A stretch of DNA of 44,407 nucleotides from Poseidonia sp. (GTDB lineage Archaea; Thermoplasmatota; Poseidoniia; Poseidoniales; Poseidoniaceae). The stretch spans positions 1 through 44,407 of the forward strand of contig JADHNB010000004.1 in the NCBI GenBank assembly GCA_016779705.1, read 5' to 3'. Positions 407-36,000 of this stretch are shown here, one piece after another. The position numbers were made by a program, and so were the translations under genes. Position 1 is the stretch's first letter, and each line of letters opens with the position of its first letter. The notes beneath the pieces were generated by a model. The model did not search any database, had not been told where the DNA came from, and was given only the letters and a program-made list of their open reading frames with translations.

Positions 407-522
407 CTTTGCCTTCTCCGGGAGTTTTTTGACCCACAGCGGGTTAATCAACCATCGCCAGAAATTTGGAAGGAAACGATGCGAAAACATTCCTTCAAAA
501 GGCAGTTGACGGACCTTCGGCC

Positions 523-3500
523 ATGAGCCGTCGCTACGACCGCCTTGCGGATTGGCTCTTGCCTCGCAAGCGGGGCGCTCACATCGCCGTGATGCTGCTC
601 ACGCTGCTGATGATTCCCGGCGCCATGACCGCGCTGCAGCCCATCGACATGGAATCCTACGAGATGGAGTCACCCGAACTTTCGGCCCAGACGCTGGTCA
701 ACGAGGAATTCCCCAATTCCGAAATCATTCTCGGCTTTCTCGTCTCCACCCGTGACCCCGTTTACGTACCCGAGGTGAACGACTGGACACCGGTTCCCCG
801 AATGGCGGACGGTTCGCCCGATTACGCCTCCCTTATCCCTCCATCCGAGATGCTGGAAGCCGGCGAGCCGTGGAGCGGCATTGACGCGCCCACGGGGGGT
901 ATCCTCAACCTCACCGTGCTTCAGGAACTGGACACCAAGCTGAATTTGGTGTTGGAACACCCGTTGGGACCGGCCCTCAAGCCGCTGGTGAACGACGTCA
1001 CGGGTCACCGCTCCAACGGTGCCATCTCCCTCTCCGACCACTTTCGGGGCTTCATGAACAACACCTCCATCCTCACCCAACCGGGCCTCACCCCGCTGGG
1101 CGTGGTGACCGACCCCCCGACCAACTGGACCGATTGCTTTCCCTTGGCCTGCTTGACCTTTGACGACCCCAACGTCACCCAAGCCCACATCGACATGGCG
1201 GCCGCCCGCATGGCCGAGGCTTCGGACAACAATTTCCTTCGATGGCTGTCGCTGGACCGTGGCTTCAAGGCCGACTACACGGCGTATCAAGACGGCCCGA
1301 TTTTCGGCCAACTCCAAGCAGACGGCTCGTGGGAAGGGGCGCTCTGGGGCAAAGGCCGCTGGACGGCCTCCTCCACCTGGCTGCTCGTGCAACTTGACCG
1401 CACGCAACTGGAGACGATGGGATGGGAAGTCGTGTGGAAGGACGCCCATCAAGAAAAGCAGGTTCAATTCACCGACGAAGGTTTCCGTGTGGGCGGCTAT
1501 CGTTTGGCGGACGGGCAACTCGTGCTCCATCCGCCCCAGTACACCGAAGCGCAATGCCTTGAACTTCAAGCCCAAGGCGAGGGGTGCGCCACCGAATGGA
1601 GTTACATGGACCTCGAGGGTCATCTTCGCAGCCACGACCGCACCACCGTCACGTTGCTCTTGGGCCAAGGCGTGAACGTGGAAGTGAACCGCGAACTGCA
1701 ATCCAGCGCCGGGCTCATCGCCTTGATGGGCTTGGCCATCGTCGTTTTGCTCTTCTTCAGCCTGCGCCGCTGGTCGGACGTCGTCATCGTGATGTTCGCG
1801 TTGGGCGCCGCGTTGCTTTGGATGCAAGGCCTCATCGGCCACTTCGCCAACCTCACGGGATGGTTGGGGTTGAGCCTCATCGCTCGGTCGCAATTTTCCA
1901 ACCTGCTGCCCATCCTCGTGCTGGCCCTGGGCATTGACGATTCCTTGCACGCGCTCCACCGCTACAAGGAGGAGCGCGCCAACGGCAAGTCCAGCCACGA
2001 AGCGGGCCACATCACGCTCGCTCGGGTCGGGCGAGCCATCACGCTGACCTCCATCACCACGATGGCGGCCTTCGCTGCCAACCTGTTCAGCGACATCGCT
2101 GCCTTGCGCTCCTTCGGCATCGAGGCGGCCTTGGGCATCTTGGCGGCGTTTTTGCTCACCGGTCTTTGGGCGCCGCTTCTGCGGGTCAGCGCCGACGATT
2201 GGCTGGACGCACGGGCGGCCAAACGCAACCACAAGGAGGTCAAATCGCTCGTGAACCCTGCGTGGTTGCGAAGCGTCACCCACGGCTCGGGTCAACGTCG
2301 CACCTCCACCGTCATCACCCTCATCGCCGTGTTGCTCACGGTGCCGGCCGCCGTTGGCATGGCCCAACTGGAAGGCGACTTCGCGGTGGAAGATTTTCTC
2401 GACGAGCGCTCCGATTTCGCCGTGGGCGTGGACGAATTGTCCAAGCGGTTTGCCGATGAGGGCGAGCCGGCCAACCTGCTCATCCTCGGGGACGTGCTGG
2501 ACCCGAGGGTGTTTGCGGCCATTGACACGTTCCGTCAGGACATGGACGCCTTGCCCGAAGGCGTGCCGGACAAGATCACTCGTCAGCCCGACGGCACCAT
2601 TGACATCCTGGCCTTGGACGAGATGGTCTTCGCGGCTCAGGGCAGTTTGGTGCTCGACAGCGCACCGTTTGAGGCGGCCGGTTGGCAGCCTGAGGTGGAC
2701 GGGTTTGGCATGAACTGCTCGTTGGCGGGCAACGGCCCGCTGGTCGATACCACGGACCGGGACTGTTTGGCCTTCTTTTACGGCTTCCTGTCCCTCAACG
2801 GCGTGCCCGGCGTCGGCCCGATTCCTGACATCCCCGCCAGCATCGTCCAGCTCTACATCATGCCCGAGGTGGACCTCGACCCGACCCGGCCGTGGTTGGA
2901 CGTGAACGGCGAGCCCGCCGCCTACGGCATGATGCAGATTCGGTTTGGCATGACGCAACCCGAGGACTTCCCCGGCATGCAAGGCGGCGTGGCCGAAGTG
3001 TGGCGCGATTTGGAGGTCTTCACCAACCTCTCCAGCGGCACCTACGAAGAACCGGGCGAAGAGGAAGCGGACAAACCCCTGACGTGGGTTATGCTGACGG
3101 GTCGACCCATCACCCGCTACACCGCTTCCACGGCCATGCAAGACGAAATGCAGTCCTCGCTGATTCTCGGCTCGCTGTTCGTCCTCGCCTCGCTGTCCAT
3201 CGGCTTCCGTTCGCCCAAGCAAGCGGTCGTCACCTTCGTGCCCATTCTGCTGGTCGTGATTTGGCTCTACGGCCTGATGTACGTGGCGGGCTCCTCGCTC
3301 AACATCGTCACGGTGACCATCGCCACCATTTCCCTTGGCGTCGGCATCGATTACTGCATTCACGTGACCGAACGGTACCGTGAGGGGCGGGAAAACGGGG
3401 AATCCCACAGCGACGCTTTGGCTGCGGTGGGCGGTGCGTGCGGCTTGGCCCTGCTCGGCTCGGCCACCTCCGACATCGCCGGTTTCCTCGTCATCGCCCT

Positions 3501-3666
3501 CTCGCCGATGGGGCTGTTCAGCAACTTTGGCATCTTCTCGGCCGCCATGATCGCCCTCTCCCTCGTCGCCAGTTTGGTGTTGACCACCGCCGCCCTTGGC
3601 CTCATCTCAAGCCACGAAGACCTGCCGCATCCCCCGACCTCCAGCCCAGCTGACGAGGAAGCCTGA
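523..3666 (+). CDS. MMPL/RND family transporter (archaeal HAE3-like)
   Basis: Two TM repeats with ALGIDDSLHALHRYKEE and GVGIDYCIHVTERYRE, each after a large extracytoplasmic domain. ATG 523 preferred over TTG 466. Confidence 0.9.
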   Translation: MSRRYDRLADWLLPRKRGAHIAVMLLTLLMIPGAMTALQPIDMESYEMESPELSAQTLVNEEFPNSEIILGFLVSTRDPVYVPEVNDWTPVPRMADGSPDYASLIPPSEMLEAGEPWSGIDAPTGGILNLTVLQELDTKLNLVLEHPLGPALKPLVNDVTGHRSNGAISLSDHFRGFMNNTSILTQPGLTPLGVVTDPPTNWTDCFPLACLTFDDPNVTQAHIDMAAARMAEASDNNFLRWLSLDRGFKADYTAYQDGPIFGQLQADGSWEGALWGKGRWTASSTWLLVQLDRTQLETMGWEVVWKDAHQEKQVQFTDEGFRVGGYRLADGQLVLHPPQYTEAQCLELQAQGEGCATEWSYMDLEGHLRSHDRTTVTLLLGQGVNVEVNRELQSSAGLIALMGLAIVVLLFFSLRRWSDVVIVMFALGAALLWMQGLIGHFANLTGWLGLSLIARSQFSNLLPILVLALGIDDSLHALHRYKEERANGKSSHEAGHITLARVGRAITLTSITTMAAFAANLFSDIAALRSFGIEAALGILAAFLLTGLWAPLLRVSADDWLDARAAKRNHKEVKSLVNPAWLRSVTHGSGQRRTSTVITLIAVLLTVPAAVGMAQLEGDFAVEDFLDERSDFAVGVDELSKRFADEGEPANLLILGDVLDPRVFAAIDTFRQDMDALPEGVPDKITRQPDGTIDILALDEMVFAAQGSLVLDSAPFEAAGWQPEVDGFGMNCSLAGNGPLVDTTDRDCLAFFYGFLSLNGVPGVGPIPDIPASIVQLYIMPEVDLDPTRPWLDVNGEPAAYGMMQIRFGMTQPEDFPGMQGGVAEVWRDLEVFTNLSSGTYEEPGEEEADKPLTWVMLTGRPITRYTASTAMQDEMQSSLILGSLFVLASLSIGFRSPKQAVVTFVPILLVVIWLYGLMYVAGSSLNIVTVTIATISLGVGIDYCIHVTERYREGRENGESHSDALAAVGGACGLALLGSATSDIAGFLVIALSPMGLFSNFGIFSAAMIALSLVASLVLTTAALGLISSHEDLPHPPTSSPADEEA

Positions 3667-3750: not shown

Positions 3751-4503
3751 CTAGGACGGAATCAACAGCACATCGGTTGTGCGCGAGATGGACGTTTCGT
3801 CGATGGCCGACCCCTCCAAATCACAGAAGGTGTAGCCGATGGTTTTGAGTTCGTTGAAGACCGCCAATTCCTCGTCCCATTGGGGGTGAGAGGTTCCCCA
3901 GCCAACCTCGCACAAGATGACCGGGCGTTGGGGCCACGCCCTCAAGGAGTCCAGCATGCCACGAAGGACAAGGTATTCCGAGCCTTCGACGTCGATTTTG
4001 ATGAAGGTCGGGACGGCCTCCGGTTTGCAAGTTTCGAAATGTTTGAGTTGGATGCGAACACGTTCCATGTCGTCCGAGGCCTTCGATTGGATGATGGTGT
4101 TCCAGCCGAGGTTGCCGTTGCTGGCCACGAAAATATCGACCTCAGCGTCGCTATCGCTCAATCCATAGTTGAACACGTGGGCGTCGTAGGAAACGTCGCG
4201 AAACGTTTCCTCACAGAGGCTGGCGAGATGAGGAAGCGGTTCAAACAAGTACATTGACCCTTTGAAACCGATTTTCTCAGCCAGCAAACGAGAGAAGAAC
4301 CCCACGTTTGCACCGATATCGAACACCACCGCATCCTGGTTCACGTAGGGTGTCACGGCCGAAATCAACGCCTCGTAACTCTCCTTCCGAAGTTCGTACC
4401 ACTTCATGGCTTCCTGGTGGGAGACGGACATCGCCGACCGTCGTTTTTCCATGAAGAGGGCCAAGCGATGCTTGAAACGGGTGAAGACGGTGCCTTTGCC
4501 CAA
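3751..4503 (-). CDS. FkbM family SAM-dependent methyltransferase
   Basis: VFDIGANVG, FEP and FIKIDVEGSE motifs. Start uncertain (4503 or 4452). Confidence 0.9.
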   Translation of the reverse strand: MGKGTVFTRFKHRLALFMEKRRSAMSVSHQEAMKWYELRKESYEALISAVTPYVNQDAVVFDIGANVGFFSRLLAEKIGFKGSMYLFEPLPHLASLCEETFRDVSYDAHVFNYGLSDSDAEVDIFVASNGNLGWNTIIQSKASDDMERVRIQLKHFETCKPEAVPTFIKIDVEGSEYLVLRGMLDSLRAWPQRPVILCEVGWGTSHPQWDEELAVFNELKTIGYTFCDLEGSAIDETSISRTTDVLLIPS

Positions 4504-4643
4504 AAAATTCCACCCACCCGTTCCTCGGAACGCCCCCTTTTATTGATTCCGACGCACCGAGTGAAGGCCCCGTCGGTCCAATGGCGCATGACGAAACCGC
4601 TGTTGGCGTAAGCATCATACCTTTCCCAATTCAAGGCCCATCC

Positions 4644-5639
4644 ATGTCCGCCGCCCAAGACTATTACCAGCAGGTCCTCGCGATGGGTCACACGCCCGAA
4701 CATGCACTGGCTTACACCCGTCAGCATTACCCCGATTTCGTCCCCGGTGTTTCCGCACCCGTCGCCGCGCCGGCGCCCACGCCGATGTCCCAACAACCCG
4801 TTCCCGCCGTTCAACCGGCGGCCCAAGCGCCGATTCAAGCGACTCCCGCCCCGATGATGGGCGCCAGTTCTGCGGTAAGCGCCCCCATGGCGGCGCCCAG
4901 CGCCTACGCCCCGATGGGCGTCCCGGTCCCCGCCAGCGGACCCTCGACCATGGTGTGGGCTGCGGTGGGGTGCATCGTGGTCGCGCTGCTGCTGTCCATC
5001 ATCGGCCAGTTCAGTCATTCGTGGATCGTCAACAACGAAGATGAAGGGTTCACCACAGGACTCAACACCGTTCGGATCGATTGTTCATTTGAGGATACAG
5101 AGGTTGATGTGGAAACATGCAAATCGTTTGCGTATGCGTTCCTTTCAGATGACTATGAAACGGCCAGCCAAGAGGACACCTCCGATGCTGATGTGATTCA
5201 AGTCGGAAGATACACCGAGTATTGTGACAACACCTATACGTTCACGGTTCAACTGATTGAAGCGTTCACGACGGATGCGGAGGAGCGCCAATCCGATATG
5301 GCCAATGCATCTGACGCCCGAGACACCTGCCTTGAAACGCCTGCAGCCGGCTCAACCGGCGGCATGGTGCTGTGGGTCGGCTCGCTCGCCGGCCTGCTGG
5401 GTGCCGTGATGTTGGGCGCCGGGGCAACCGGTCGCGCCCTGCCCGCCAACCTTGAGAAGCACGGTCACTGGACGGCCATCGCCGCTGGGGCCCTGATGCT
5501 GCTCGCCGTGCTCGTGTGGTGGGTCTTGTTGCCCGATACGGAACTCGACACCAGCGCCGGCATGGGCGTGTGGATGACGGTGCTGGGCGGCCTTGCCGGC
5601 ATCGCCGCCGGCGTGATGACCCTGCTCGACCAAAAGTGA
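4644..5639 (+). CDS. Four-TM membrane protein, claudin/PMP22-like topology, with P/A-rich N-terminal linker
   Basis: Four hydrophobic helices. W...GL...C...C follows TM1, and the large first loop has 4 Cys. Start placed at ATG 4644. Confidence 0.7.
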   Translation: MSAAQDYYQQVLAMGHTPEHALAYTRQHYPDFVPGVSAPVAAPAPTPMSQQPVPAVQPAAQAPIQATPAPMMGASSAVSAPMAAPSAYAPMGVPVPASGPSTMVWAAVGCIVVALLLSIIGQFSHSWIVNNEDEGFTTGLNTVRIDCSFEDTEVDVETCKSFAYAFLSDDYETASQEDTSDADVIQVGRYTEYCDNTYTFTVQLIEAFTTDAEERQSDMANASDARDTCLETPAAGSTGGMVLWVGSLAGLLGAVMLGAGATGRALPANLEKHGHWTAIAAGALMLLAVLVWWVLLPDTELDTSAGMGVWMTVLGGLAGIAAGVMTLLDQK

Positions 5640-5730
5640 GCGGCGTTTTCGCATCGGTGGCTTCATCAAGGGTTGCGTCAGCGGAAGGGTTGCTGTCCCC
5701 GGGGTTGGCCCCAGGAGAGTGGTGAGGACG

Positions 5731-7464
5731 ATGACCGAAAACGAGGCGAAGCGACCTGACGACGAGGACGAAGACGACGACTGGATGAAGTACGCCACCG
5801 CCAGTTTCGGCGAGACGGATTATTCCCTCTGGGACGACGTTGAGCCCGTTGAAGAGGACGAAGCCCATGCGGCGGAAGTGGCCATGCAGTTGGGCACCCA
5901 CGTCGAGGAAATTCCTCGCGCCCCCTCCGCGGCCGGTCACAAACATCTGGTTCGCGAGGGCACCTGCGACGCCTGTTTGGGTCGCGTCGGTGGCAAGCGT
6001 ATCTACGGCCAATCCTTCGAAGACGCCGGGGCTGGTGTTCGGGCCAGCGTGGTGGAGCAAGACCAGCACATGGCCAACGCTCGCAAGGCGGCCCCGCTGT
6101 GTCCGTTTTGCGAAAACTTGTTTGAAGAAGTCGACCTGTTGGCCGATATCATTCACGACGCCGTTGGACCCTATGACCTCACTCGGCTCCAGTTGGGCGC
6201 TCGATTTCCGAAGGACCAAACGGACACGGAGGAAGACCTTCGAAAGCGCTTGGGCGCTGGCGGTTCTGAACCCTTGAAATCGGCCCTCGTCGACCAGATT
6301 GGCGCCCGACTCAAGGACCGTTTGGACGGGGTCGCGATGGTTAACGACAAGCCCGACATTCTGGCGCTCATCGACGTGTTAACGCTCACCGTTGAATTGG
6401 ACGTGCGAGCGGTCTACGTGTACGGGCGCTACCGAAAATTGGAGCGCGGCATTCCCCAGACCCGTTGGCCTTGCCGAGCCTGCAAAGGACGCGGGTGCGA
6501 GCGCTGCGACCAAACGGGGCTGCAATACAAACGCAGCGTCCAAGACCTCGTGGGCAACCCGATGTTGGCGATCTTTGAGGGGACCGAGCACGCCTTCCAC
6601 GGCATGGGTCGTGAGGACATCGACGTTCGGTGTCTGGGACGGGGTCGTCCCTTCGTGTTGGAAATCAAGGAGCCAAAAAAGCGGGCGTTCAACGCCGAGA
6701 AGTTAGCGGAAATCATCAACGAAGCCGCCAACGGCTCGGTGGAGGTGTCGTCCATCCGCCCTTCGAGCCGAAGCGAAGTGGTGCGCATCAAGGACACGCC
6801 CGCCGAGAAATCCTACACGATTCGTTTCACCATTGAGCCGATGAGCGAAGCCGAATACGCCGTGCTCACCGCCCCGGTGGACATGACGAAGGAGGACGTG
6901 CAGGAACGCAGCAAGAAGCGACGGCGACAGCGTCGCGGCGACAAGGATGAGGACCGAACCAAGCCGCTGGCCACGCCCATCGACGTGCCCGCCACCGGTC
7001 CTAGCGAAGCGGAACTCAAGAGCATGAAGAAACCCGAATTGGTGGCCCTTTGCGAGACCCACGGGCTTGCCAAGACGGGGACGAAGGACGAATTGATTCA
7101 ACGCATCGTGGAAGCCTTGCCCCCTGCTCCGGCGATGTTGGACCTGCCCGACGACGAGACCATCCTCAAGGTCATCGAGGGCTTGAACGGCATCAAGCTG
7201 GCCCAGCGCACGCCCGACCGGGTGGCGCACCGTCGCTCCGACCTCATCCGTAAGCGGACCGTGTTTGAAGCCCACACGCCCTTCATCGAAATCAACGAGG
7301 ACGGGCAGCGGGAAATCGAATTCACCCTGCGTTGCGAATCGGGGACCTACGTCAAAGAAACGGTGCACGGCGACAACGGCCGCACCCAACCTTGCGTGGC
7401 AGCGCTCATCAAAGCCAAGTGCAACGTCCTCTGGTTGGACGTGGGTGACATCCACGCCGATTGA
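5731..7464 (+). CDS. pus10: tRNA pseudouridine(54/55) synthase Pus10 with inserted SAP domain
   Basis: CDACLGR and CPFC Zn ligands, YGRYRKLERGIPQTRWPC, HGMGREDIDVR catalytic motif, ESGTYVKE..HGDNGRT.P. Lies upstream of rpl21e. Confidence 0.95.
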   Translation: MTENEAKRPDDEDEDDDWMKYATASFGETDYSLWDDVEPVEEDEAHAAEVAMQLGTHVEEIPRAPSAAGHKHLVREGTCDACLGRVGGKRIYGQSFEDAGAGVRASVVEQDQHMANARKAAPLCPFCENLFEEVDLLADIIHDAVGPYDLTRLQLGARFPKDQTDTEEDLRKRLGAGGSEPLKSALVDQIGARLKDRLDGVAMVNDKPDILALIDVLTLTVELDVRAVYVYGRYRKLERGIPQTRWPCRACKGRGCERCDQTGLQYKRSVQDLVGNPMLAIFEGTEHAFHGMGREDIDVRCLGRGRPFVLEIKEPKKRAFNAEKLAEIINEAANGSVEVSSIRPSSRSEVVRIKDTPAEKSYTIRFTIEPMSEAEYAVLTAPVDMTKEDVQERSKKRRRQRRGDKDEDRTKPLATPIDVPATGPSEAELKSMKKPELVALCETHGLAKTGTKDELIQRIVEALPPAPAMLDLPDDETILKVIEGLNGIKLAQRTPDRVAHRRSDLIRKRTVFEAHTPFIEINEDGQREIEFTLRCESGTYVKETVHGDNGRTQPCVAALIKAKCNVLWLDVGDIHAD

Positions 7465-8265: not shown

Positions 8266-9099
8266 ATGACAGAACGGCGAAGGCGCTCCATCAAGGCTCC
8301 AAGCGGACCTCGTAAGAAGGAAGGGCTCGACCCGTCCAAGTTCAGAATGAACCCCCCTCCCATGGGCCGCACCGAAGTGCCCAAGCCCAAACCGAAACCC
8401 GAGCCGAACCAACCGCAGCAAAACCGAACGGACAGACAACCGTCCTCCGGTCGGCCGCAAGGTGGACGAGGGCAGGGCCGCGGAGGACGTGGCCAAGCCG
8501 GTCGGGGCCGACCACAAGGCGGGCGCCGAGACCAGCCTCGCCGAGAGCGCCCGGAGCAACTCAAGGGCGAAAACTGGGCCCGCGTCTTTGAGCACGACAC
8601 CACCACCGGCGTGGTCACCGCCCTCACCGAGAAGGGCATGAAGTGCTGCCGCTTGCACGTCAAGAGCAAGGAGATGCTTCCGCTCAACCACCGCCTCTAC
8701 ATCGGCACGGACGCCGCCCGCCGCCAAGAGGTGAAGGCGATTTTGGGCATGGCCCATTTCGACAAGATGTCCAACATGGCTCGTCACGATTTGCCCGTGA
8801 TGATCGAGCAATTCATTGAGGAGCACGGCCAATATTTTGTGGACGAATTTTACAACAAGGCCGGCCCCATTTCGTTGAAACAACATTCCTTTGAGTTGTT
8901 GCCCGACGTCGGCCCGGTGAAGGCTCGCAACATGGTCAAGGCTCGTGAAGACGTGGGCGTGTTCGCTTCGATGGCCGAACTCAACGCCCTCGCCAAAATC
9001 AAGGGCGCTGAACTCTTGGCCATGCGTTTTGTTGAAGAAATTCAAGACGTCAACCTTCAACCTCGCCTGATCGATTTCCTGCTTCCGGTGACCGCATGA
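8266..9099 (+). CDS. DUF655 family putative RNA-binding protein with RG-rich N-terminal extension
   Basis: FYNKAGPISLKQHSFELLPDVG HhH-type motif. Conserved synteny rpo4-DUF655-rsmA. Confidence 0.85.
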   Translation: MTERRRRSIKAPSGPRKKEGLDPSKFRMNPPPMGRTEVPKPKPKPEPNQPQQNRTDRQPSSGRPQGGRGQGRGGRGQAGRGRPQGGRRDQPRRERPEQLKGENWARVFEHDTTTGVVTALTEKGMKCCRLHVKSKEMLPLNHRLYIGTDAARRQEVKAILGMAHFDKMSNMARHDLPVMIEQFIEEHGQYFVDEFYNKAGPISLKQHSFELLPDVGPVKARNMVKAREDVGVFASMAELNALAKIKGAELLAMRFVEEIQDVNLQPRLIDFLLPVTA

Positions 9100-9971
9100 A
9101 GGGCGCTCGCCGATTGGTCGATGCGTTGCGCTCCCTCCAACCGGCGAACAAGAGCCTCGGACAGCACTTTCTCATCAACGACGAGGTGCTTGAACGCACC
9201 GTGGCGTGGGCGGAGGTGGACGTGGAGGACCACGTGCTCGAGGTGGGCCCGGGTCCGGGCGTCCTGACCGAAGTGTTGTTGGCGTCAGGTTGCAAGGTCA
9301 CCGCCGTTGAACTGGACAGCGGAGCGTGTGCTCATCTGCGAACCGAATTTGCCGAAGCGTTGGCCGAAGGGCGCTTGACGCTCATCGAAGGCGACGCCCT
9401 TCACGTCGCTTGGCCCGATGACGTCACCCGCATCGTGGCGAACATTCCCTACCAGATTTCCTCACCCCTCATCGACGTCATCACCCGCCACCACCGCAAC
9501 CCCAAGACCCTCCCCCTGGAGGACATCGTCCTGCTGGTGCAGGAGGAATTCGCTGAACGGGTCGTGATGGAATACGAAAGCGACGTCGGTTCACTGGGCA
9601 TGGTGGTCGCCTTGGATTTTGACGTGGAGATGGGGGAACGTGTTCCGCCCCACGTGTTCTCGCCCATGCCTCGCGTCCACTCCAGGTTGTTGCGCATGAC
9701 CCCGCACGACGAGGATTGGCCCTGCGACCGACGCTTGCTGGTGATGATGATTCAAGCGGCCTTTGCCAGCCGACGGAAGAAAATCAAACGCACCTTGCGC
9801 AGCCCCCCCCGTCGCATCGCACGCGTCCCTGGGTGGCACGCTTCTCGCTGGATGCGCGCCTACAACGCTCTGCAAAACGACCCACGTTTGGAGCGACGGC
9901 CCGAAACGTTCGAACTTGAGGAATGGGCTGAATTGGGCGTGGATTTCGCCTCGTGCGAAGAAGAGGCGTGA
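9096..9971 (+). CDS. rsmA: 16S rRNA adenine dimethyltransferase RsmA/KsgA
   Basis: KSLGQHFL, VLEVGPGPGVLT, VANIPYQISSP, FSPMPRVHS. ATGA overlap with upstream gene. Confidence 0.95.
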   Translation: MKGARRLVDALRSLQPANKSLGQHFLINDEVLERTVAWAEVDVEDHVLEVGPGPGVLTEVLLASGCKVTAVELDSGACAHLRTEFAEALAEGRLTLIEGDALHVAWPDDVTRIVANIPYQISSPLIDVITRHHRNPKTLPLEDIVLLVQEEFAERVVMEYESDVGSLGMVVALDFDVEMGERVPPHVFSPMPRVHSRLLRMTPHDEDWPCDRRLLVMMIQAAFASRRKKIKRTLRSPPRRIARVPGWHASRWMRAYNALQNDPRLERRPETFELEEWAELGVDFASCEEEA

Positions 9972-18262: not shown

Positions 18263-19219
18263 TCAAGTGCGCATCGTCTCAAGTTGCCCTTGAGGGGTGG
18301 CGGCCAAGCGTTCCTCGGCGATGGCGCAATACTCGGGTGAAAGGTCCACACCAACGTAATGCCGTCCGTGCAATTTGGCCGCCACGCAGGTGGTGCCCGA
18401 GCCGTTGAAGGGGTCAAGGACGATGTCGCCGGCAAAGGTGTACATCTCAATGCAGCGTTTGGGCAATTCCACCGGGAAAGGCGCTGGGTGATTGACTCGA
18501 GACGCTCGTTCAGTGGCAAACGACCAGATGGACTTCGTGTGCTGAATGAAATCATCCCGTGGAATGGTATCCAGGCGCCCCGCTTCACGTTCATTTTTGC
18601 TACGGGGCAGTTTGTAGTCGCCTTTGGAGAACACGAGCAAATATTCGTGAACATCTCGCAAGCAGGGATTGGACGCCGATTGGAAGGACCCCCAAGCGCA
18701 CGACGAACCGGCGCTGGCGGATTTGTCCCAAACGATCTCCCCGCGCATCAAGAACCCGATTTCGGCCATGATGATGTTGATGTGGGACGACAACGGGATG
18801 TACGGCTTGCGGCCCAGGTTGGCCACGTTCACCACCATCCGCCCACCAGGGGTCAACACTCGGTAGCATTCTGCAAAGACCTCGTGGAGCAGGGTGAGGT
18901 ACTCCTTGAGCGAGAGGTCATCGTCGTATTCCTTCGAAGCGTTGTACGGGGGAGAGGTGACGACCAAGTGAACACAGTTGTCAGGAAGCGGCAGCGCCCG
19001 TGCATCGCCGCACACAACCGTGTCCAACCGTTCCTGGGGGAGGCCTTGGGCGGGGCCGACCTCGCGAGAACTGACCAAGCCTTCGTTGAGTCGGCTGGTG
19101 TAGTACAGGCTCGCATCGTGACCCTCTCGCCTTGACACGCCGAACGCTGAGGTCGCGGTTGAGGCACGCCGACGGGCCCCCTCCAGAGGAGCCTTGTCGT
19201 TTGGCGGTGCATCGGCCAT
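18263..19219 (-). CDS. Site-specific DNA methyltransferase, N4-C/N6-A beta class
   Basis: LVVTSPPY catalytic motif comes before HPAPFP and VLDPFNGSGTT. Confidence 0.93.
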   Translation of the reverse strand: MADAPPNDKAPLEGARRRASTATSAFGVSRREGHDASLYYTSRLNEGLVSSREVGPAQGLPQERLDTVVCGDARALPLPDNCVHLVVTSPPYNASKEYDDDLSLKEYLTLLHEVFAECYRVLTPGGRMVVNVANLGRKPYIPLSSHINIIMAEIGFLMRGEIVWDKSASAGSSCAWGSFQSASNPCLRDVHEYLLVFSKGDYKLPRSKNEREAGRLDTIPRDDFIQHTKSIWSFATERASRVNHPAPFPVELPKRCIEMYTFAGDIVLDPFNGSGTTCVAAKLHGRHYVGVDLSPEYCAIAEERLAATPQGQLETMRT

Positions 19220-19360
19220 GGGGACGAAGGGCTTCGCGGGCCTTATCACCTTTCGCGCCCTTCACCGGCCGGTGACGCGCGTTGTGCGACCCCACGCCGA
19301 CGAGCGCGCCCCATGAACTCGGAGCGAGGAATCAAAAACCGTGCGCTCGTGGGGAGGCCA

Positions 19361-23780: not shown

Positions 23781-26700
23781 TCAGTCCTCATCAGACGTTC
23801 GCTTCACGGCCCGACGCTTGACGGGCGCCTTGCGGGGTGCCGGTCGACGACCAACGGCTCGACGGACAGGCTTCTTCGTTGCCTCATCGTCGTCATCATC
23901 GTCGTCGTCATCTGCGTCGTCGTCGTCATCGTCGTCGTCGTCGTCATCGTCGTCATCCGGTTCCTCATCCTTCTTCTTGCGGCGGCGTTCTTTACGCTGA
24001 ACAATGTTGATGGCGAAGGGGTCGTCATCGTCCTCTTTTGGAGCCGATTTCGCCTCCTCCTTCTTTTCCTCGTTTTCGGCAGGGGCTGCGGCGGCACCGG
24101 TTCCGGTGACGGCGTCCATGTCAAGGTCTTGGCTGGTGCCAATGAATTCCGACATCCACGATTCATCGTCTTCATCATCGTCGCCCCGCTTCTTCTTCTT
24201 TGGCCCCGACATGCCCACTTGGATGATCATCAAGGAAACGACGATGGCCAAGAGGTTCACCACAGCGATGACCCACACGATCACGTACGGCGGGTCGGCA
24301 AAGCCTGGCGTGATGGTCTCGGGTTCCACCGGAGGCTTGAGGTCCTCCTCGTAATTGCAGACGGTGGTCCCGTCCAAGCGGTTTCGGCAGAAATCCACGA
24401 TGAATTCCACGCGCTTCTGAACTTCGTTGCCGGCACCGTCGGTGGCTCGTACGGTGATGGCGTGCTTGCCGGCCTCAAAGTTCCCGGCGGTCACCTCCAT
24501 GTTGGCGGACAAGGAGCGGTTGTTGCCTTCCAAGTCGGTGATGCCGGTCAAGTCGGCCCAAGGCGTGGACACGGGCGAACCCGTCAAGCCGCCGTAGTGG
24601 TAGGTGAACCGGTACTGGAACGAGGTGATGACAACGTCGTCGGTGGCGCCCGCCAGCACGTTGATTCGGTTACCGTAGAGGTACTTCGAGCCGTCAGAAG
24701 CCGGCGTGGGCGAGAAGATGTTCACCACGGGGAGTTGGGCATCGATGGAGAGGTGTCCCCAGGATTGGACAACCACGTTGCTGGACTCGTCTTCCATGGT
24801 AACCCGAACGACCATGTCGCCCGCATCGGTGTTGGCGAGGATGCTGAAATCGTAGGTGTAAAGTGGCCCGATGTTGGGGTTGTTGCGGTTGTCGTTGAGC
24901 ACCGCCAGCGGTTCTTCGTCGTTGGTCAGAACGCCGCCGGTCAAGGTGGTGATGTTGATGGTGGGGGTGGTGCCGAGGTCCTCGTTGACCTGGACGCGGA
25001 GGCTGTATTGTCCGGCCACCAGCGTGGTGCTGTCATACGGAGCACCGTCACCATCCACCACGGTCAGGGTGGCGTTGGGCAGGAGCGTGTCCTCAGCGAC
25101 CTTGAAGGCGTTTCCACCAAAGCCAGCAAAGATTTCACCGTTGAAATTGCCCCATTCGTCGGTGATGGTCACAGCGTACCACACGTTTCGGTCAACATCG
25201 CTGGGGATGGTGAACTCACGGGTGATGGTATCGCCGGTTTCCACGGTGGTTTCGATGGTGTCAAGCACCGATTCCCATCCGTCCGATTCAATGGTGGACA
25301 AGTCGTTCTCATCCTCACCAAAGGGCGCCCCGTAATGGCGCCAAATGGCGTATGTTTCGTTGGCTTCGTCCTCGTTAAACCACTCGAGGCTCACGAGGTT
25401 CATCGAACCGATGGAATAGGCGTTCTTGATCCGGGGAGGATTGGGAGCCAAGGTGTCTTCAAACGGCACTTGGAAATAATTCTGAATGAGGTTGGTGTAG
25501 TGATAGGTCCCGTTAACGTTGCCATAAAGGGCTTCAGACGTGACCCAATAGAAGGAGTTCGTCCGGTACACATCGGCGGGGACTTCGGCGTCGAAGTAAC
25601 CAACGCCGTCGCTCACGGTTCCCAAATAAATGAGGGTCTCGTTTTCAACGAACTGACCGGTGTTGACGCGGTAGGTGGAATACCAAACGTGGTAGATCTC
25701 ACCTTCAATGCCCAGCTGGTCGTTCCAGGTGACGCGGGTGGTGCGGTCACCGATGAATTCAGCGTGGACGTTGGTTGGCTCGGCGACCCAACCGTAGAAG
25801 GCGTTCTCCTCGATGGCGTTGGTGCAAGAATCACCGGTGGTGTCGGTGTTGATGACGCCGGTGGCGTCCACCGTCACCACGCAGTAGTACGAATAGCCGA
25901 GGAAGCCTTGCGGAACCTGGACTTGGTAGGAGTTGATGCCTTCCAGAATGCCAGACACGACCAGTTCAACGTCGTTGCGCAAGACCGTGACAAAGGGTTG
26001 GTCCGAGCGGTAGACGCGATAGGTTTCACCCGTTTCGGCGGCGACATCGCCCCAACTGATGTTGGTGTACCCCGTGCCATCGAGTGGGTTGGGCACGAAT
26101 TCCGCCGAAAGCAGGATGGGTTGGTCAGGAGGATTGTTGTCTTCGGTCACCGGACCGACCGTGTTCTGGCCTACGAACCGAAGGTCCTCGTAATCTTGCC
26201 CGGCGCCAAACCAATTTGGTAGGTAGTACGTGATGGAATAGTAACTCTCCTGTTGGGTGCTGGGCGGAATGTCAACGACGTAGGACGTGTTGGTGGCGTC
26301 CACCACGGCGATGGGTGTTGCGGTGATGGGCAGGAACACGCCGTTGCTGCGGTCAATGGGGTAAGACGTCTGCCAAATCCGAATTTGCAAGGCATCGGGG
26401 CCAGTCGTGGGGTGGACCGCCTGGATGGAGTTGTAATTCAACCAGTTCAGCGTGGTTTGGCTCGTTGTAGGGTCAAAAAGAGCCGAGATGATGAAGGGCG
26501 TTTGAACCGGCTGGGTGATTTCCTGAACCGGCGTGTAGAGGTGCGACCCGTTGAAGAGGAATTCAGCGGCTTCCGTACCGTTGGACAACGAGGTCGTGAT
26601 GGCGTAGTAAAACGAGCCGTTGGTGCCCGGGGAGACGGGATATTCCACGATGTGTCCCGGATGGGCGTTTTCGTCACAGTTCATCGGGTTGCCACCGGCC

Positions 26701-27035
26701 GATCCCGAATCGCAGGCCGCCACCGTCATGAAGGGCGTCAACGAAGCGAGGTTTGAAGCGTTGATGATGGAGGTGTGGCGGTAGACGTTGTAGGTGGCGC
26801 TGAACAAGGCGTTGAGCACGTTGATGTTGGTGGATTCCAGATTCGTCCACGTGATGGTGGTGGTTTCCGTGGCGACATCAAAGGTGGCGTTGATGTGTTG
26901 CGCTTGCAAGTTGGAGGGTGTGCCGAGGTTTGCATCGGCCGCTGAGGGGGTGACCGGCGCCAAGGCGAGCAGCATCACCGCAACGAGAAAGACGGCGCGC
27001 AAAGTTCCGTTTTGTTCAGCCGTAGGACTACCCAT
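23781..27035 (-). CDS. Large cell-surface protein: signal peptide, about 5 FN3-like and Ig-like domains, C-terminal TM, charged tail
   Basis: Repeated xxxW...Y.(V/I)(Y/W)...YY.(I/V)T pattern, GKHAITVRATDGAGN Ig motif, many N-x-S/T sequons. Confidence 0.85.
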   Translation of the reverse strand: MGSPTAEQNGTLRAVFLVAVMLLALAPVTPSAADANLGTPSNLQAQHINATFDVATETTTITWTNLESTNINVLNALFSATYNVYRHTSIINASNLASLTPFMTVAACDSGSAGGNPMNCDENAHPGHIVEYPVSPGTNGSFYYAITTSLSNGTEAAEFLFNGSHLYTPVQEITQPVQTPFIISALFDPTTSQTTLNWLNYNSIQAVHPTTGPDALQIRIWQTSYPIDRSNGVFLPITATPIAVVDATNTSYVVDIPPSTQQESYYSITYYLPNWFGAGQDYEDLRFVGQNTVGPVTEDNNPPDQPILLSAEFVPNPLDGTGYTNISWGDVAAETGETYRVYRSDQPFVTVLRNDVELVVSGILEGINSYQVQVPQGFLGYSYYCVVTVDATGVINTDTTGDSCTNAIEENAFYGWVAEPTNVHAEFIGDRTTRVTWNDQLGIEGEIYHVWYSTYRVNTGQFVENETLIYLGTVSDGVGYFDAEVPADVYRTNSFYWVTSEALYGNVNGTYHYTNLIQNYFQVPFEDTLAPNPPRIKNAYSIGSMNLVSLEWFNEDEANETYAIWRHYGAPFGEDENDLSTIESDGWESVLDTIETTVETGDTITREFTIPSDVDRNVWYAVTITDEWGNFNGEIFAGFGGNAFKVAEDTLLPNATLTVVDGDGAPYDSTTLVAGQYSLRVQVNEDLGTTPTINITTLTGGVLTNDEEPLAVLNDNRNNPNIGPLYTYDFSILANTDAGDMVVRVTMEDESSNVVVQSWGHLSIDAQLPVVNIFSPTPASDGSKYLYGNRINVLAGATDDVVITSFQYRFTYHYGGLTGSPVSTPWADLTGITDLEGNNRSLSANMEVTAGNFEAGKHAITVRATDGAGNEVQKRVEFIVDFCRNRLDGTTVCNYEEDLKPPVEPETITPGFADPPYVIVWVIAVVNLLAIVVSLMIIQVGMSGPKKKKRGDDDEDDESWMSEFIGTSQDLDMDAVTGTGAAAAPAENEEKKEEAKSAPKEDDDDPFAINIVQRKERRRKKKDEEPDDDDDDDDDDDDDDADDDDDDDDDEATKKPVRRAVGRRPAPRKAPVKRRAVKRTSDED
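23886..23957 (-). repeat. Imperfect (GAY)n trinucleotide tract encoding D14-A-D9
   Basis: 24 codons read directly: 23 GAC/GAT and one GCA. Confidence 0.95.
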
Positions 27036-27122
27036 CAACGCATATGTAGCCTTCGTCCGTTATGACTATGTCGCTTTGAGGGTGTCAAAAATCCCGATAC
27101 ACGGCCGTTTTTGAGGTCGCCA

Positions 27123-30449: not shown

Positions 30450-31484
30450 ATGCCGACCAAAGCGAAAACAAACGTGAACATCGAAGTTGAAAAGAATGAA
30501 GCACCTGAGGAAGAGGTGGCTCCTCCAATGACGGAGGAAGAGGAGGTCGAACTGACCATCGAAGACCTGCCCGGTGTGGGGCCTGCTACCGCCGAGAAAC
30601 TCCGAGAAGCCGGTTTTGAGGAACTCCTTGCGCTCGCCGTGATGTCGCCCGGCGACCTGGCCGAAGAAGCTGAGCTGGGCGAAGCGGTCTCTGCTAAGAT
30701 CATCGCCGCAGCCAAGAAGATGGCCAACATTGGAGGCTTCGTTTCCGGCGATGCCTTGCTCGAGCGCCGCCGAGAGGTGCAAAAGCTCTCCTCCAAGGTG
30801 CAATCCATCGATGACCTCTTGGGCGGCGGTTTTGAAACCCAAGCCTTGGTCGAAGTGTACGGTGAATTCGGAAGCGGCAAGACCCAAATCGGCCACCAAC
30901 TCGCCGTCAACTGCACCCTGCCCGTGGACCAAGGCGGTTTGGATGGCGACGTGTTCTACATCGACACCGAAGACACCTTCCGCCCCGAGCGCATCACCCA
31001 GATGGCCCGAGGTCACGGACTTGACCCTGAATACGTGCTCTCTCGCATCCACGTCGCCCGGGCGTACAATTCCGCCCACCAGATGCTCTTGGCTGACGAG
31101 ATCAAGCGCATGAGCAAGGGGCTCAACGTCAAGATGATCATCGTTGATTCGCTGACCAGCCATTTCCGTGCTGAATTCATTGGCCGAGGCATGCTCGCAC
31201 GCCGCCAACAAAAGCTCAACAGCCACCTGAAGGACTTGAAGCAACTGGCCGATGTCAACAACGCTCTGGTGCTGGTGACCAATCAAGTGCACTCGAAACC
31301 CGATGCCATGTGGGGCGACCCCACCAAGCCGATCGGCGGTCACATTTTGGCTCACGCCAGCACCTTCCGCCTCTACCTCCGCAAGGCCAAGGGCGGCCGT
31401 CGAATCGCTCGACTGGTCGACTCGCCCAACTTGCCCGACGGTGAATGCGTCTACCAGGTCACCGAAGAAGGCCTCCGGGACTGA
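30450..31484 (+). CDS. radA: DNA repair and recombination protein RadA
   Basis: [12 protein letters not shown] Hh[35 protein letters not shown]. Confidence 0.98.
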
Positions 31485-31572
31485 TTCGGCGCAAACGAAG
31501 CGGTTGCCAAACCGCCGGCTCGTCCAGCGAATGGTGCGGCAGGTTGAAAATGTCAACAAGGGAACTTCACCC

Positions 31573-32700
31573 ATGCGCCACCTGATTGAACGTGTCCTTG
31601 AGCTCTCCGAGGAGGAACAACGACTCCCTCCTCGCGAACCGGCACCCGACCAGGGAAGCGATGAGGAATTGCTTGCCTTGTTGGAATCGCTCCAACCGCG
31701 TATCCGTGTCTACGGTGTTGGCGGAGCGGGATGCAACGCCGTCAACCGACTGTTCGACGAGTCCTTGTTCGAATCGTCCTACGTGACGGGTTACGCCATC
31801 AACACGGACGCCCAAGCGTTGCTTCAATCGCCGATCAAGGAAAAGGTGCTCATCGGCCGTACGGCGAGAGGCCGTGGCGCAGGAGGCGACCCCACCAAGG
31901 GCGAAGCCGCCGCACTCGAATCGGAAATGGTGTTGCGCAGAATCACCAACGACACTCAACTGGCCATCATCACCGCCGGCATGGGCGGCGGTTCGGGAAC
32001 CGGTGCAGCGGGCCACATCGCCCGATTGGCGAAGGCTCAGGGCGCCCTCACCATTGCGGTGGTGACCTACCCGTTCAAGTCCGAAGGTTCGCTTCGCCGG
32101 CAAAACGCCGAATGGGGACTTGAACGCTTGAGGGAACATTGCGATACCATTTTGGTGATTCCAAACGAACGTCTGTTGGAAATTGAGGGCGTCAAGGACC
32201 TTCCCCTCGCCAGTGCCTTCAGGGTCGGTGACGAACTGTTGGTGCGCTCCATCACCGGCGTGACGGAGATGCTCAACAGCGACGGCATGGTGAACCTTGA
32301 CTTTGAGGACTTGAAAGCCATCATCAGTTCGGGTGGTGGCGTCGCCATGATCGGCCTTGGGGCCGCCAAGGGCCCAGGTCGTGCGGAGGCCGCCGTAATG
32401 GAAGCGCTCCACTCACCGCTTCTCGAAATGGACATGAGCGACGCTCGAGGCGCCCTCATCAACGTCATCGGGGGCCAAAGCTTGACGCTTGGGGAAGCCG
32501 AACGTTGCGCTCAACTCATCAGCGAACAGATTTCACCCAACGCCAAAATCATCTGGGGGGCCGACGCCAAACCTGAACACGGTGATGACCTTCGAGTGAT
32601 GGTCGTCATCACCGGCGTCAAAAGCCCGCAGATTCACGGCTCGATGGAAAACCGTCAGTTGAGAGCGTTGCGAAATCGCCAAATCGAATTCGTGAACTGA
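31573..32700 (+). CDS. ftsZ: Cell division protein FtsZ
   Basis: GVGGAGCNAV, INTDAQ, GAGGDP, GMGGGSGTG tubulin signature, NLDFED T7 loop, IIWGA. Confidence 0.95.
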   Translation: MRHLIERVLELSEEEQRLPPREPAPDQGSDEELLALLESLQPRIRVYGVGGAGCNAVNRLFDESLFESSYVTGYAINTDAQALLQSPIKEKVLIGRTARGRGAGGDPTKGEAAALESEMVLRRITNDTQLAIITAGMGGGSGTGAAGHIARLAKAQGALTIAVVTYPFKSEGSLRRQNAEWGLERLREHCDTILVIPNERLLEIEGVKDLPLASAFRVGDELLVRSITGVTEMLNSDGMVNLDFEDLKAIISSGGGVAMIGLGAAKGPGRAEAAVMEALHSPLLEMDMSDARGALINVIGGQSLTLGEAERCAQLISEQISPNAKIIWGADAKPEHGDDLRVMVVITGVKSPQIHGSMENRQLRALRNRQIEFVN

Positions 32701-35634: not shown

Positions 35635-36000
35635 ATGTCCCGCTCCTACGACGCCCGTTGGGTCAGCATCAAGGGGGCCCAAGAACGGAAATGGTGGATT
35701 CGAGCCAAGGCCAAAATTGACACGGGAGCCAAGCGTTGCTCCATTGACCAAGGCCTCGCTGAAGCCTTGGGATTGCCCGTCGTGGGCGAAGTCAAGGTTC
35801 GAAACGCCATGGGAAGCCAGGAGCGAAACGTCGTGTTGGCCAACGTTCGCGTGGGACGCATCACCTACAAAGTTGAGATGACTGTGGCCGACCGGAGCCA
35901 GTTGAAATGCCCCATGCTGTTGGGCAAAACCTTCCTCGATGAATTGGCCAAGCAACCGCTGAAACCCAACCGAAAAGGCGGCGTGCCTCAGTTCGTTTGA
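35635..36000 (+). CDS. Retropepsin-like aspartic protease (RimK/LysX-associated family)
   Basis: AKIDTGAKRCSID and ADRSQLKCPMLLGKTFL. Confidence 0.85.
   Translation: MSRSYDARWVSIKGAQERKWWIRAKAKIDTGAKRCSIDQGLAEALGLPVVGEVKVRNAMGSQERNVVLANVRVGRITYKVEMTVADRSQLKCPMLLGKTFLDELAKQPLKPNRKGGVPQFV

Follow-up and report, generated by a model that had tools for sequence, protein, structure and literature searches.

Claudin-type tetraspans (claudins, PMP22, MP20, TARPs, calcium-channel gamma subunits and DUOXA) are usually regarded as eukaryotic parts from which junctions and channel complexes are built, and a gene in an archaeal genome raises the question of whether that view holds. The gene lies at positions 4644..5639 (+) of a 44,407-nucleotide stretch of DNA from Poseidonia sp. 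(assembly GCA_016779705.1, contig JADHNB010000004.1), the whole of which we call the window. A first-pass annotation, made from the sequence alone, had proposed that its product is a claudin/PMP22-like tetraspan, with a possible part in cell contact or membrane organisation. Our analysis supported the tetraspan proposal, as the top structural matches of the predicted fold all belonged to the claudin superfamily. Taken as a whole, we consider it likely that the protein carries an archaeal version of the claudin/PMP22/TARP/DUOXA tetraspan fold and, exposed at the surface, organises the membrane or acts as an accessory subunit. Residue numbers refer to this protein, denoted P0001.

Position 4644 is the likely start of P0001, because 21 of the 23 orthologues aligned to it (alignment A1) begin at the same Met-Ser-Ala (MSA); a second in-frame ATG upstream, at 4581, is also open and would add 21 residues. 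The gene is divided below into its coding parts, with transmembrane segments abbreviated TM, the AlphaFold2 model confidence given as predicted local distance difference test (pLDDT) and identity referring to the orthologues:

4644..5639, plus strand: the whole claudin-like coding sequence, a tetraspan with a predicted cytoplasmic N-terminal module (331 amino acids plus stop, uninterrupted translation)
4644..4751, plus strand: residues 1-36, two-helix module of predicted cytoplasmic location, YY..L..MGH..E.AL.YT.QHYP.F (helices 3-13 and 18-28; pLDDT 90-96)
4752..4943, plus strand: residues 37-100, linker rich in proline, alanine and glutamine, predicted to be disordered (pLDDT 42-59; identity 0.65)
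4944..5012, plus strand: residues 101-123, TM1 (hydropathy, AlphaFold2 model)
5013..5363, plus strand: residues 124-240, predicted extracellular loop 1 of about 117 amino acids, with W127, G139-L140 and Cys 147, 159, 194 and 229
within loop 1, plus strand: strands 128-130, 136-138, 142-146 and 185-189 and helices 156-167, 171-176 and 190-208 (AlphaFold2 model)
5364..5429, plus strand: residues 241-262, TM2 with the invariant W244, continuous with a predicted extracellular helix from 212 (AlphaFold2 model, alignment)
5430..5468, plus strand: residues 263-275, short predicted cytoplasmic loop (hydropathy, AlphaFold2 model)
5469..5531, plus strand: residues 276-296, TM3 (hydropathy, AlphaFold2 model; identity 0.90)
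5532..5561, plus strand: residues 297-306, predicted extracellular loop 2, giving the fifth strand, 303-305 (AlphaFold2 model; identity 0.88)
5562..5636, plus strand: residues 307-331, TM4 and a short C terminus, ..LLDQK (sequence, hydropathy, AlphaFold2 model)

The residue string that had been noticed after TM1 is exact (S124-H-S-W127, 11 residues, G139-L140, six residues, C147, 11 residues and C159), and TM4 is preceded by A305-G-M-G-V-W-M..G315-G316. The long loop that had been placed after this string is real, but it belongs to loop 1 itself, which has four cysteines and not two. Loop 1 is also strongly acidic, with 26 Asp or Glu against 5 Lys or Arg. The first 100 residues, made up of the conserved two-helix module and its linker, were absent from the first-pass annotation.

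The claudin/PMP22 superfamily has the signature W-GLW-C-C in loop 1, and we followed the counterpart in P0001 through A2, a diverse family alignment of 33 sequences whose identity to P0001 goes down to 23%. W127 was present in all 33 sequences, G139 in 29, L140 in 32, C147 in 24 and C159 in 31, and the GL-x6-C spacing was constant in all 24 sequences that have C147. Judged from the alignments, the SHSW/GL/Cys motif is more than a chance pattern and is kept well past the close relatives. W127 and the GL pair sit at the boundary of TM1 and strand 1 and ahead of strand 3, which we take to be their places in claudins.

Among the orthologues of P0001, Cys 147, 159, 194 and 229 are invariant and the loop-1 stretch C229-LETPAAGSTGG is nearly so. 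Mean pairwise identity across the 23 orthologues was 0.90 in the N-terminal module, 0.98 in C229-G240, 0.90 in TM3 and 0.88 in loop 2; the least conserved part was the loop-1 insert 148-228, at 0.47 versus 0.84-0.98 in the parts flanking it. Exactly four loop-1 cysteines were found in 142 of 144 full-length cores (one of the others had two and one had three), a set that includes many close relatives and thus does not amount to 144 independent observations. The count holds even in subfamilies where C147 is replaced by a cysteine elsewhere. This constant even number fits two disulfides in loop 1, and the predicted pairing would be 147-159 and 194-229.

We modelled P0001 with AlphaFold2 on A2 without templates. 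Mean pLDDT was 84.4, with ten-residue blocks across 101-331 at 84-98 and the linker below 60. In the model, five strands form a cap over a bundle of four helices; loop 1 contributes four strands and loop 2 one, and all five lie within ten-residue blocks of mean pLDDT 84-97. From the N-terminal end of the core, the elements are TM1 (102-122), three strands, helices 156-167 and 171-176, strand 185-189, helix 190-208, a long helix 212-262 that continues into TM2, TM3 (267-295), strand 303-305 and TM4 (307-330). These four membrane helices and the four hydrophobic segments found by a hydropathy scan bear out the four TM segments first proposed. The first-pass annotation had also named in advance what the fold should look like, a four-helix bundle with a beta-sheet cap that matches claudin structures, and this is what the model gave. 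Of the claudin-type loop-1 signature, the Trp, the Gly-Leu and both cysteines are present and conserved, but Asn stands in place of the second Trp, and the second cysteine, C159, is placed on an inserted helix and not on a strand.

In a Foldseek search of the PDB, DUOXA1 came first (7d3e_B, E 6.1e-4) and was the sole match at E ≤ 0.001; the further matches listed after it were only TARPs, claudin-15 and claudin-3. When the Foldseek candidates were aligned with VIA-align, MP20 reached Z 17.0 (root mean square deviation 2.2 Å over 155 of 166 residues) and claudin-15 reached Z 16.2 (164 of 181 residues), followed by TARPs, claudin-4, claudin-19, claudin-3 and GSG1L at Z 15-16, and the best 50 matches listed were all claudin-superfamily chains. 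A search independent of Foldseek, in which the model was aligned with all 48,161 representative PDB chains, gave claudin-fold chains in each of the top 11 places (Z 13.3-17.0): MP20, three TARP entries, claudin-19, another TARP, a designed 'claudin fold', a Cav1.1 chain, claudin-4, a GARLH4 chain and DUOXA1. The longest alignment in this search was that of DUOXA1, with 184 residues at 23% identity. Soluble, unrelated four-helix bundles started at Z 12.4 with about 120 residues aligned, and the search tool cautions that helical bundles may reach Z ~13 from arrangement alone. What carries the claim of a claudin fold is how far Z 17 stands above this level, together with target coverage that is nearly complete and top matches that are all of one kind.

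P0001 is most readily compared with the PMP22/EMP/MP20/claudin family (PF00822). MP20 (9cbv), claudin-15 (4p79), claudin-19 (3x29), claudin-4 (8u4v) and claudin-3 (6akf) aligned at Z 15.6-17.0 over 147-164 residues, most of each target. Shared are four TM segments, termini that in P0001 are predicted to lie inside, a sheet of 4+1 strands, a Trp right after TM1 and a Gly-Leu that precedes strand 3 and has a Cys after it. Unlike these proteins, P0001 has a loop 1 of about 117 amino acids with extra helices and four cysteines, GLN in place of GLW, and a 100-residue N-terminal extension of predicted cytoplasmic location, and it lacks a C-terminal tail (..LLDQK). It is also archaeal, and accessory rather than universal in its distribution.

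A shared fold leaves two options, which the first-pass annotation had kept side by side as 'homolog or analog', and the sequence evidence that bears on them comes mainly from relatives of P0001. The gathering cut-offs are 23.3 bits for DuoxA (PF10204) and 26.7 bits for PMP22_Claudin (PF00822). At E ≤ 10, DuoxA was touched by 14 of the 33 sequences of A2, Claudin_3 by 8 and PMP22_Claudin by 3. Among 33 further, partly overlapping relatives searched at E ≤ 0.05, DuoxA was matched by 10, of which 3 scored above the cut-off: P0165 (46.4 bits) and P0174 (36.6 bits), which have two units each and are scored over two stretches added together, and P0205 (33.2 bits) in one stretch. PMP22_Claudin was matched by 4 of the same relatives and passed by one, the tandem P0165 (27.7 bits in two stretches, the best covering positions 7-160 of 161 in the profile). 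Six more single-unit proteins passed DuoxA: P0211 (35.4 bits), P0213 (33.3), L033 (31.8), P0208 (30.9) and two paralogues of one Poseidoniales genome, G165 (30.9 and 30.7). L033, a compact protein of another Thermoplasmatota family, also matched the PMP22_Claudin profile over 6-161 of 161 (E 0.0033).

The DuoxA-positive subfamily (alignment A4) and the orthologues of P0001 (A1) are joined by profile comparison, with an hhalign probability of 99.8%, E 5e-28 and 220 aligned columns. Among 177,635 PDB sequences, DUOXA1 was the single top match for both the A2 profile and the core-only family profile A3. The Pfam models were sparing in whole genomes: PF10204 was found in 1 of 151 Poseidoniales genomes (the two tandem paralogues of G165) and PF00822, at E ≤ 1e-3, in 5 of 401 Thermoplasmatota genomes, once above the cut-off. 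As each matched 0 of 14 control genomes, neither is promiscuous. Remote homology with the eukaryotic claudin-type families, closest to DUOXA, is on these grounds probable. It is carried by intermediates, sister subfamilies that are linked to the P0001 group, and is unproven for loop 1 of P0001. The option of a homolog has thus gained through the relatives that pass DuoxA and PMP22_Claudin, while P0001 itself stays below every Pfam threshold.

Several observations weigh against this reading. P0001 gave no significant match in Pfam, NCBIfam or PDB sequences; its best claudin-related Pfam match was DuoxA at E 8.4 (5.8 bits, below 23.3), and it gave no match at the PF00822 cut-off. In A2 at E ≤ 10, the model touched most was SLATT_fungal, which is unrelated and reached 17 of the 33 sequences through 25 residues of TM4. 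The DuoxA matches are confined to about positions 152-263 of the profile, from ahead of TM2 to TM4, and hydrophobic segments can match by composition. The family profiles reached DUOXA1 in the PDB sequences only at E 0.9 (A2) and 0.047 (A3). The PMP22_Claudin passes are borderline, as the score of P0165 sums two stretches and a G165 frame scored 26.4 bits alone and 26.8 bits only with its neighbours in frame. The fold is a model prediction, and a second AlphaFold2 model, made for the DuoxA-positive subfamily from 12 sequences, had a mean pLDDT of 53.7, too low for the model to be used, with a similar order of elements. Finally, the signature is imperfect, with GLN for GLW (a caveat correctly raised at the outset), a loop 1 about twice the claudin length and the second cysteine on a helix.

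Such observations could mean that P0001 is a convergent analogue, in which the bundle-plus-sheet was reached independently and the weak Pfam matches reflect TM composition and not ancestry. The lack of a significant direct match for P0001, the modest profile-to-PDB E values, the restriction of the DuoxA matches to the TM2-TM4 part, the 7-23% identity to solved claudin-fold chains and a loop 1 with inserts and a different cysteine pattern are all in its favour. We nevertheless find convergence unlikely: models of DuoxA, PMP22_Claudin, Claudin_2, Claudin_3, Clc-like, GSG-1 and SUR7 recur across the relatives, the matches of P0165 and L033 to PMP22_Claudin run over the full profile, W and GL are placed as in claudins, DUOXA1 is the top PDB sequence for two profiles, and the controls are empty. 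Two stray matches were set aside as noise: Herpes_U47 (E 0.16), the sole Pfam match in the direct search with P0001, and a haloalkane dehalogenase (E ~1), the sole PDB-sequence match, which fell on the Pro/Ala linker. In the ESM Atlas, the clusters nearest to the P0001 core were unnamed archaeal ones, and the nearest named cluster was Amastin at 0.75, which we treat as a lead only.

The closeness to DUOXA invites a more specific reading, that P0001 is a true DUOXA-type maturation factor escorting a NOX/DUOX-like oxidase. DUOXA1 was the best Foldseek match and gave the longest and most identical structural alignment, and DuoxA is the only claudin-type family whose Pfam cut-off was passed by single-unit relatives. 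According to Wu et al. (2021, PMC7794343), four of the five DUOXA1 helices together with the loops resemble claudins, the loop domain consists of four strands and two helices, and DUOXA binds DUOX through its five TM helices and an N-terminal peptide. With respect to that description, the mix of strands and helices in the loop domain of DUOXA1/2 (7d3e_B, 6wxr_B) matches loop 1 of P0001; the two also align in the AG..LW motif that opens TM2. Unlike DUOXA, P0001 has four helices and not five, with no extra N-terminal helix. The ferric-reductase domain PF01794 was found neither in the genome of P0001 (G000, an assembly 68% complete) nor in any of five gene-bearing relatives (88-93% complete), whereas the same search had matches in 5 of 14 control genomes. 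Because of this absence from all six genomes, a specific DUOXA-like role is very improbable.

A broader mode of action is suggested by the rest of the superfamily. Claudins and MP20 self-assemble in the membrane, and TARPs, GSG1L and DUOXA are lateral partners of membrane proteins. Claudins proper polymerise in cis and trans into strands and carry a C-terminal PDZ-binding tail. The auxiliary-subunit tetraspans (TARP gamma-2, -3, -5, -7 and -8, GSG1L, Cav1.1 gamma and GARLH4/LHFPL4) share the predicted fold of P0001 at Z 13.9-16.0 and 7-16% sequence identity, where we take 3jbr_E to be the gamma subunit and 9faj_L to be GARLH4 from their entry titles. Their lateral partnering is the mode that we propose for P0001, a relative of which is fused to an SNF/NSS transporter; the likeness implies no channel partner for P0001. 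Under this proposal, loops 1 and 2 would build an extracellular five-stranded sheet with the acidic helical insert on top, probably held by two disulfides, and the bundle and its cap would contact other envelope or membrane proteins. P0001 would then be a surface-exposed membrane organiser or accessory subunit in the manner of MP20, TARPs, Cav-gamma and DUOXA, and would not form a paracellular barrier. We favour a lateral partner because of the fusions of the core to a transporter and a kinase, the long-tailed frames and a shared docking-type tail module.

The relatives indeed come in several architectures: core-only proteins of about 210-290 amino acids, two cores in tandem, and a core with a Gln-rich tail ending in PDPYQQW. 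In six of eight long frames that we fetched, a conserved cytoplasmic region comes after the core, and a coiled coil, an extended proline-rich stretch and a conserved acidic C-terminal motif complete the protein. These six (L049, L050, L051, L052, L053 and L056, from G165, G258, G390, G282, G270 and G444) represent a widespread class, are 616-782 amino acids long and gave no Pfam match as a class. Their conserved cytoplasmic region has the motifs ..RMRANGVR..EFVLKES.. and ..TGFSHQR.DWLD.. and two more helices, and their C-terminal motif is ..AAPRE..LS.DE.D.LL..L. The transporter fusion (L055 1651-3867 (-), G165:C91) is a 738-amino-acid stop-free frame in which an SNF/NSS sodium symporter (PF00209, E 4.7e-32) is joined to a C-terminal core; the core lies at 570-724 and matches the Claudin_3 profile over 8-154 of 163 (E 0.0018), and part of the N terminus is masked. 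The kinase fusion, P0189, is a metagenomic protein of 1008 amino acids with a core at 21-232, more helices, a coiled coil and a Ser/Thr kinase (PF00069, E 1.8e-26) at 731-943. The Gln-rich-tail subfamily, whose members end in ..QQPDPYQQW (P0158, P0160, P0205 and P0208-P0214), is the one that passes DuoxA, and two of its copies stand in tandem in G165:C108 (L014 1372-2244 (-) and 2303-3130 (-)).

The tail module points to the cytoplasmic side of the proposed system. A profile of residues 1-36 matched three frames in the genome of P0001: P0001 itself, a frame of 1156 amino acids on contig C39 and one of 1688 amino acids on contig C72. The module, in its general form about 30 residues of YY..L(I/V)aQGY....A..Yt.QY, occurs once at the C terminus of the C39 frame (L002 1495-1596, L032) and twice at that of the C72 frame (L031). 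Both giant proteins consist of a long repeat-rich part, presumably outside the cell, a single hydrophobic helix, the basic residues RRRGGG or RKGGEKE, a stretch rich in proline, alanine and glutamine, and the module; D-x-D-G-D-G repeats are abundant in the C39 protein. As the module follows a TM helix and basic residues in both, it would be a cytoplasmic tail piece, and a cytoplasmic module would in turn put the N terminus of P0001 inside and loop 1 outside, for a predicted N-in, C-in topology. A flexible linker would thereby carry the conserved two-helix module on the cytoplasmic side, where it may dock P0001 to the same partner as the giant surface proteins. In many Poseidoniaceae genomes of our phylum sample, the A2 profile was matched over positions 4-40 alone, by frames about 1150-1220 amino acids long, and the giant tail-bearing protein therefore has a wider distribution than the claudin-like protein. 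The module matched neither a Pfam or NCBIfam model nor a named ESM Atlas cluster, and a Pfam search of the giant tail-bearing protein returned nothing.

A word-seeded protein search with P0001 found 171 proteins at E ≤ 1e-3, of which the best 120 were full-length orthologues of about 335 amino acids, 55-94% identical and with no Pfam tag. The closest, at 94% identity, is a hypothetical protein of Poseidonia sp., and others are named as from Candidatus Poseidoniales archaeon (Marine Group II). An exhaustive phmmer search of 1.84 billion cluster representatives gave 87 matches at E ≤ 1e-3, of which 48 reached E ≤ 1e-10. With the A3 profile at E ≤ 1e-5, the family was present in 59 of 151 Poseidoniales genomes (40 of 74 in family f1, 18 of 74 in family f2 and, besides the genome of P0001, 12 of 20 in its own genus) and in 17 of the 58 genomes at least 90% complete; G165 alone had seven matches. 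Outside Poseidoniales, the 401 Thermoplasmatota genomes gave only weaker, mostly partial matches, at least one of which, L033, is a bona fide compact four-helix relative.

The neighbouring genes offer a further candidate for a partner. Genes with assigned families in the window include:

466..3666, plus strand: MMPL/RND-type transporter with a sterol-sensing-like domain (Pfam MMPL, E 2e-27)
3751..4503, minus strand: FkbM-type methyltransferase, between the MMPL gene and the claudin-like gene (Pfam Methyltransf_21, E 8e-14)
5719..7464, plus strand: archaeal Pus10 with an archaeal THUMP domain, a conserved downstream neighbour (Pfam Pus10_C, E 4e-61)
8266-9099: DUF655 (Pfam)
9096-9971: KsgA (Pfam)
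18263-19249, minus strand: DNA N6/N4 methylase
31303-32700: FtsZ
42303-44405, plus strand: second MMPL-family transporter, continuing past the window (PF03176, E 2.2e-55)

Pus10, DUF655 and KsgA mark the surroundings as archaeal. We fetched 15 loci around the best family matches, which are not a random sample, and in 7 of them MMPL, the claudin-like gene and Pus10 follow in this order on one strand, with about 50-180 bases from MMPL to the claudin-like gene; one further locus ends within the claudin-like gene beside Pus10, and 7 show other contexts. This order is what speaks for P0001 as a dedicated accessory subunit of the MMPL/RND-type transporter, in the fashion of MmpS-MmpL. We then compared the interval between MMPL and Pus10 in five genomes of the same genus without a full-length match. 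In G051 and G288, MMPL abuts Pus10 within about 93-164 bases and there is no claudin-like gene; in G127 (G127:C21, L038 3325-3639 (-)) a remnant of 105 amino acids joins residues 1-45 to 288-331; the slot is occupied by an unrelated 344-amino-acid membrane open reading frame in G219 and by other small open reading frames in G045. In the window, the opposite-strand FkbM gene separates the two genes, paralogues occur in unrelated contexts, and identity across loci is 32-59% for the claudin-like protein, against 70-89% for MMPL and 62-86% for Pus10. A dedicated MMPL subunit is therefore improbable, the transporter being kept where the gene is absent, reduced or replaced. Patchy presence, a variable MMPL-Pus10 slot and an identity lower than that of the neighbours instead describe, as read from the genomes, an accessory, strain-variable and fast-evolving surface gene in a variable slot, neither a housekeeping gene nor an obligate partner of MMPL. 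The remnant in G127 is an in-frame internal deletion that keeps the tail module and TM4, and the FkbM methyltransferase, for which tblastn gave no match in the 15 + 5 related loci, was found in the window only.

Variability of this kind could also reflect adhesion or recognition between cells or between cells and particles through a variable cap, in the way of claudins or MP20, and the cap might also be a receptor for viruses that evolves under diversifying pressure. Conservation within the protein is lowest in the exposed loop-1 insert, the gene is patchy both in the order and in its own genus and stands in a variable slot, and the cytoplasmic module is common to giant repeat-rich, adhesin-like surface proteins. 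The C terminus of P0001, however, is DQK and has no YV motif, through which claudins bind scaffolds, and the host group is one of free-living planktonic cells. We give this alternative a rather low probability and retain the membrane organiser or accessory subunit as the likely role.

In the literature searched, which had subscription journals outside its coverage, no publication that came up described a claudin-fold protein from an archaeon or any other prokaryote, and the sections of PMC8327215 available to us hold nothing on archaeal DUOXA. The precomputed tags of the protein database place PF10204 on 8 of 120 listed matches to the A3 profile, so a trace of the DuoxA link is already held there for some sister proteins. 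What is probably new is the presence of a known fold and probable superfamily in another domain of life and in a new architecture, with the tail module and an enlarged cap with two predicted disulfides. With a confident claudin-fold family in planktonic archaea, this architecture would have originated, or have been exchanged, beyond the eukaryotes, and the small, simple members of the family would allow the bare fold to be studied. The shared tail module further suggests that these archaea, abundant in the ocean, may have an undescribed means of connecting their surface proteins with the inside of the cell. A more far-reaching view, which we regard as possible but doubtful, is that the claudin/DUOXA/TARP fold is not a eukaryotic invention and that an old, diversified Thermoplasmatota branch uses it as a plug-in membrane module, which in Poseidoniales is tied by the shared tail module into the cytoplasmic docking system of the giant surface proteins. 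If so, the module would be deployed solo, in tandem or fused to kinases, NSS transporters or proline-rich tails, and would be an archaeal counterpart of eukaryotic surface complexes organised by tetraspans.

Elsewhere in the window, two long frames at 23781-27038 (-) and 35988-39449 (-), of 1085 and 1153 amino acids, have no Pfam match at E ≤ 1e-5; both overlap long frames on the opposite strand, so that either strand may be the coding one. A scan for sigma-70 promoters and intrinsic terminators gave none, with a promoter model that is not archaeal. The downstream Pus10 protein has an acidic N-terminal extension and, in its C-terminal part, a SAP domain (PF02037, E 3.2e-10) at 433-467.

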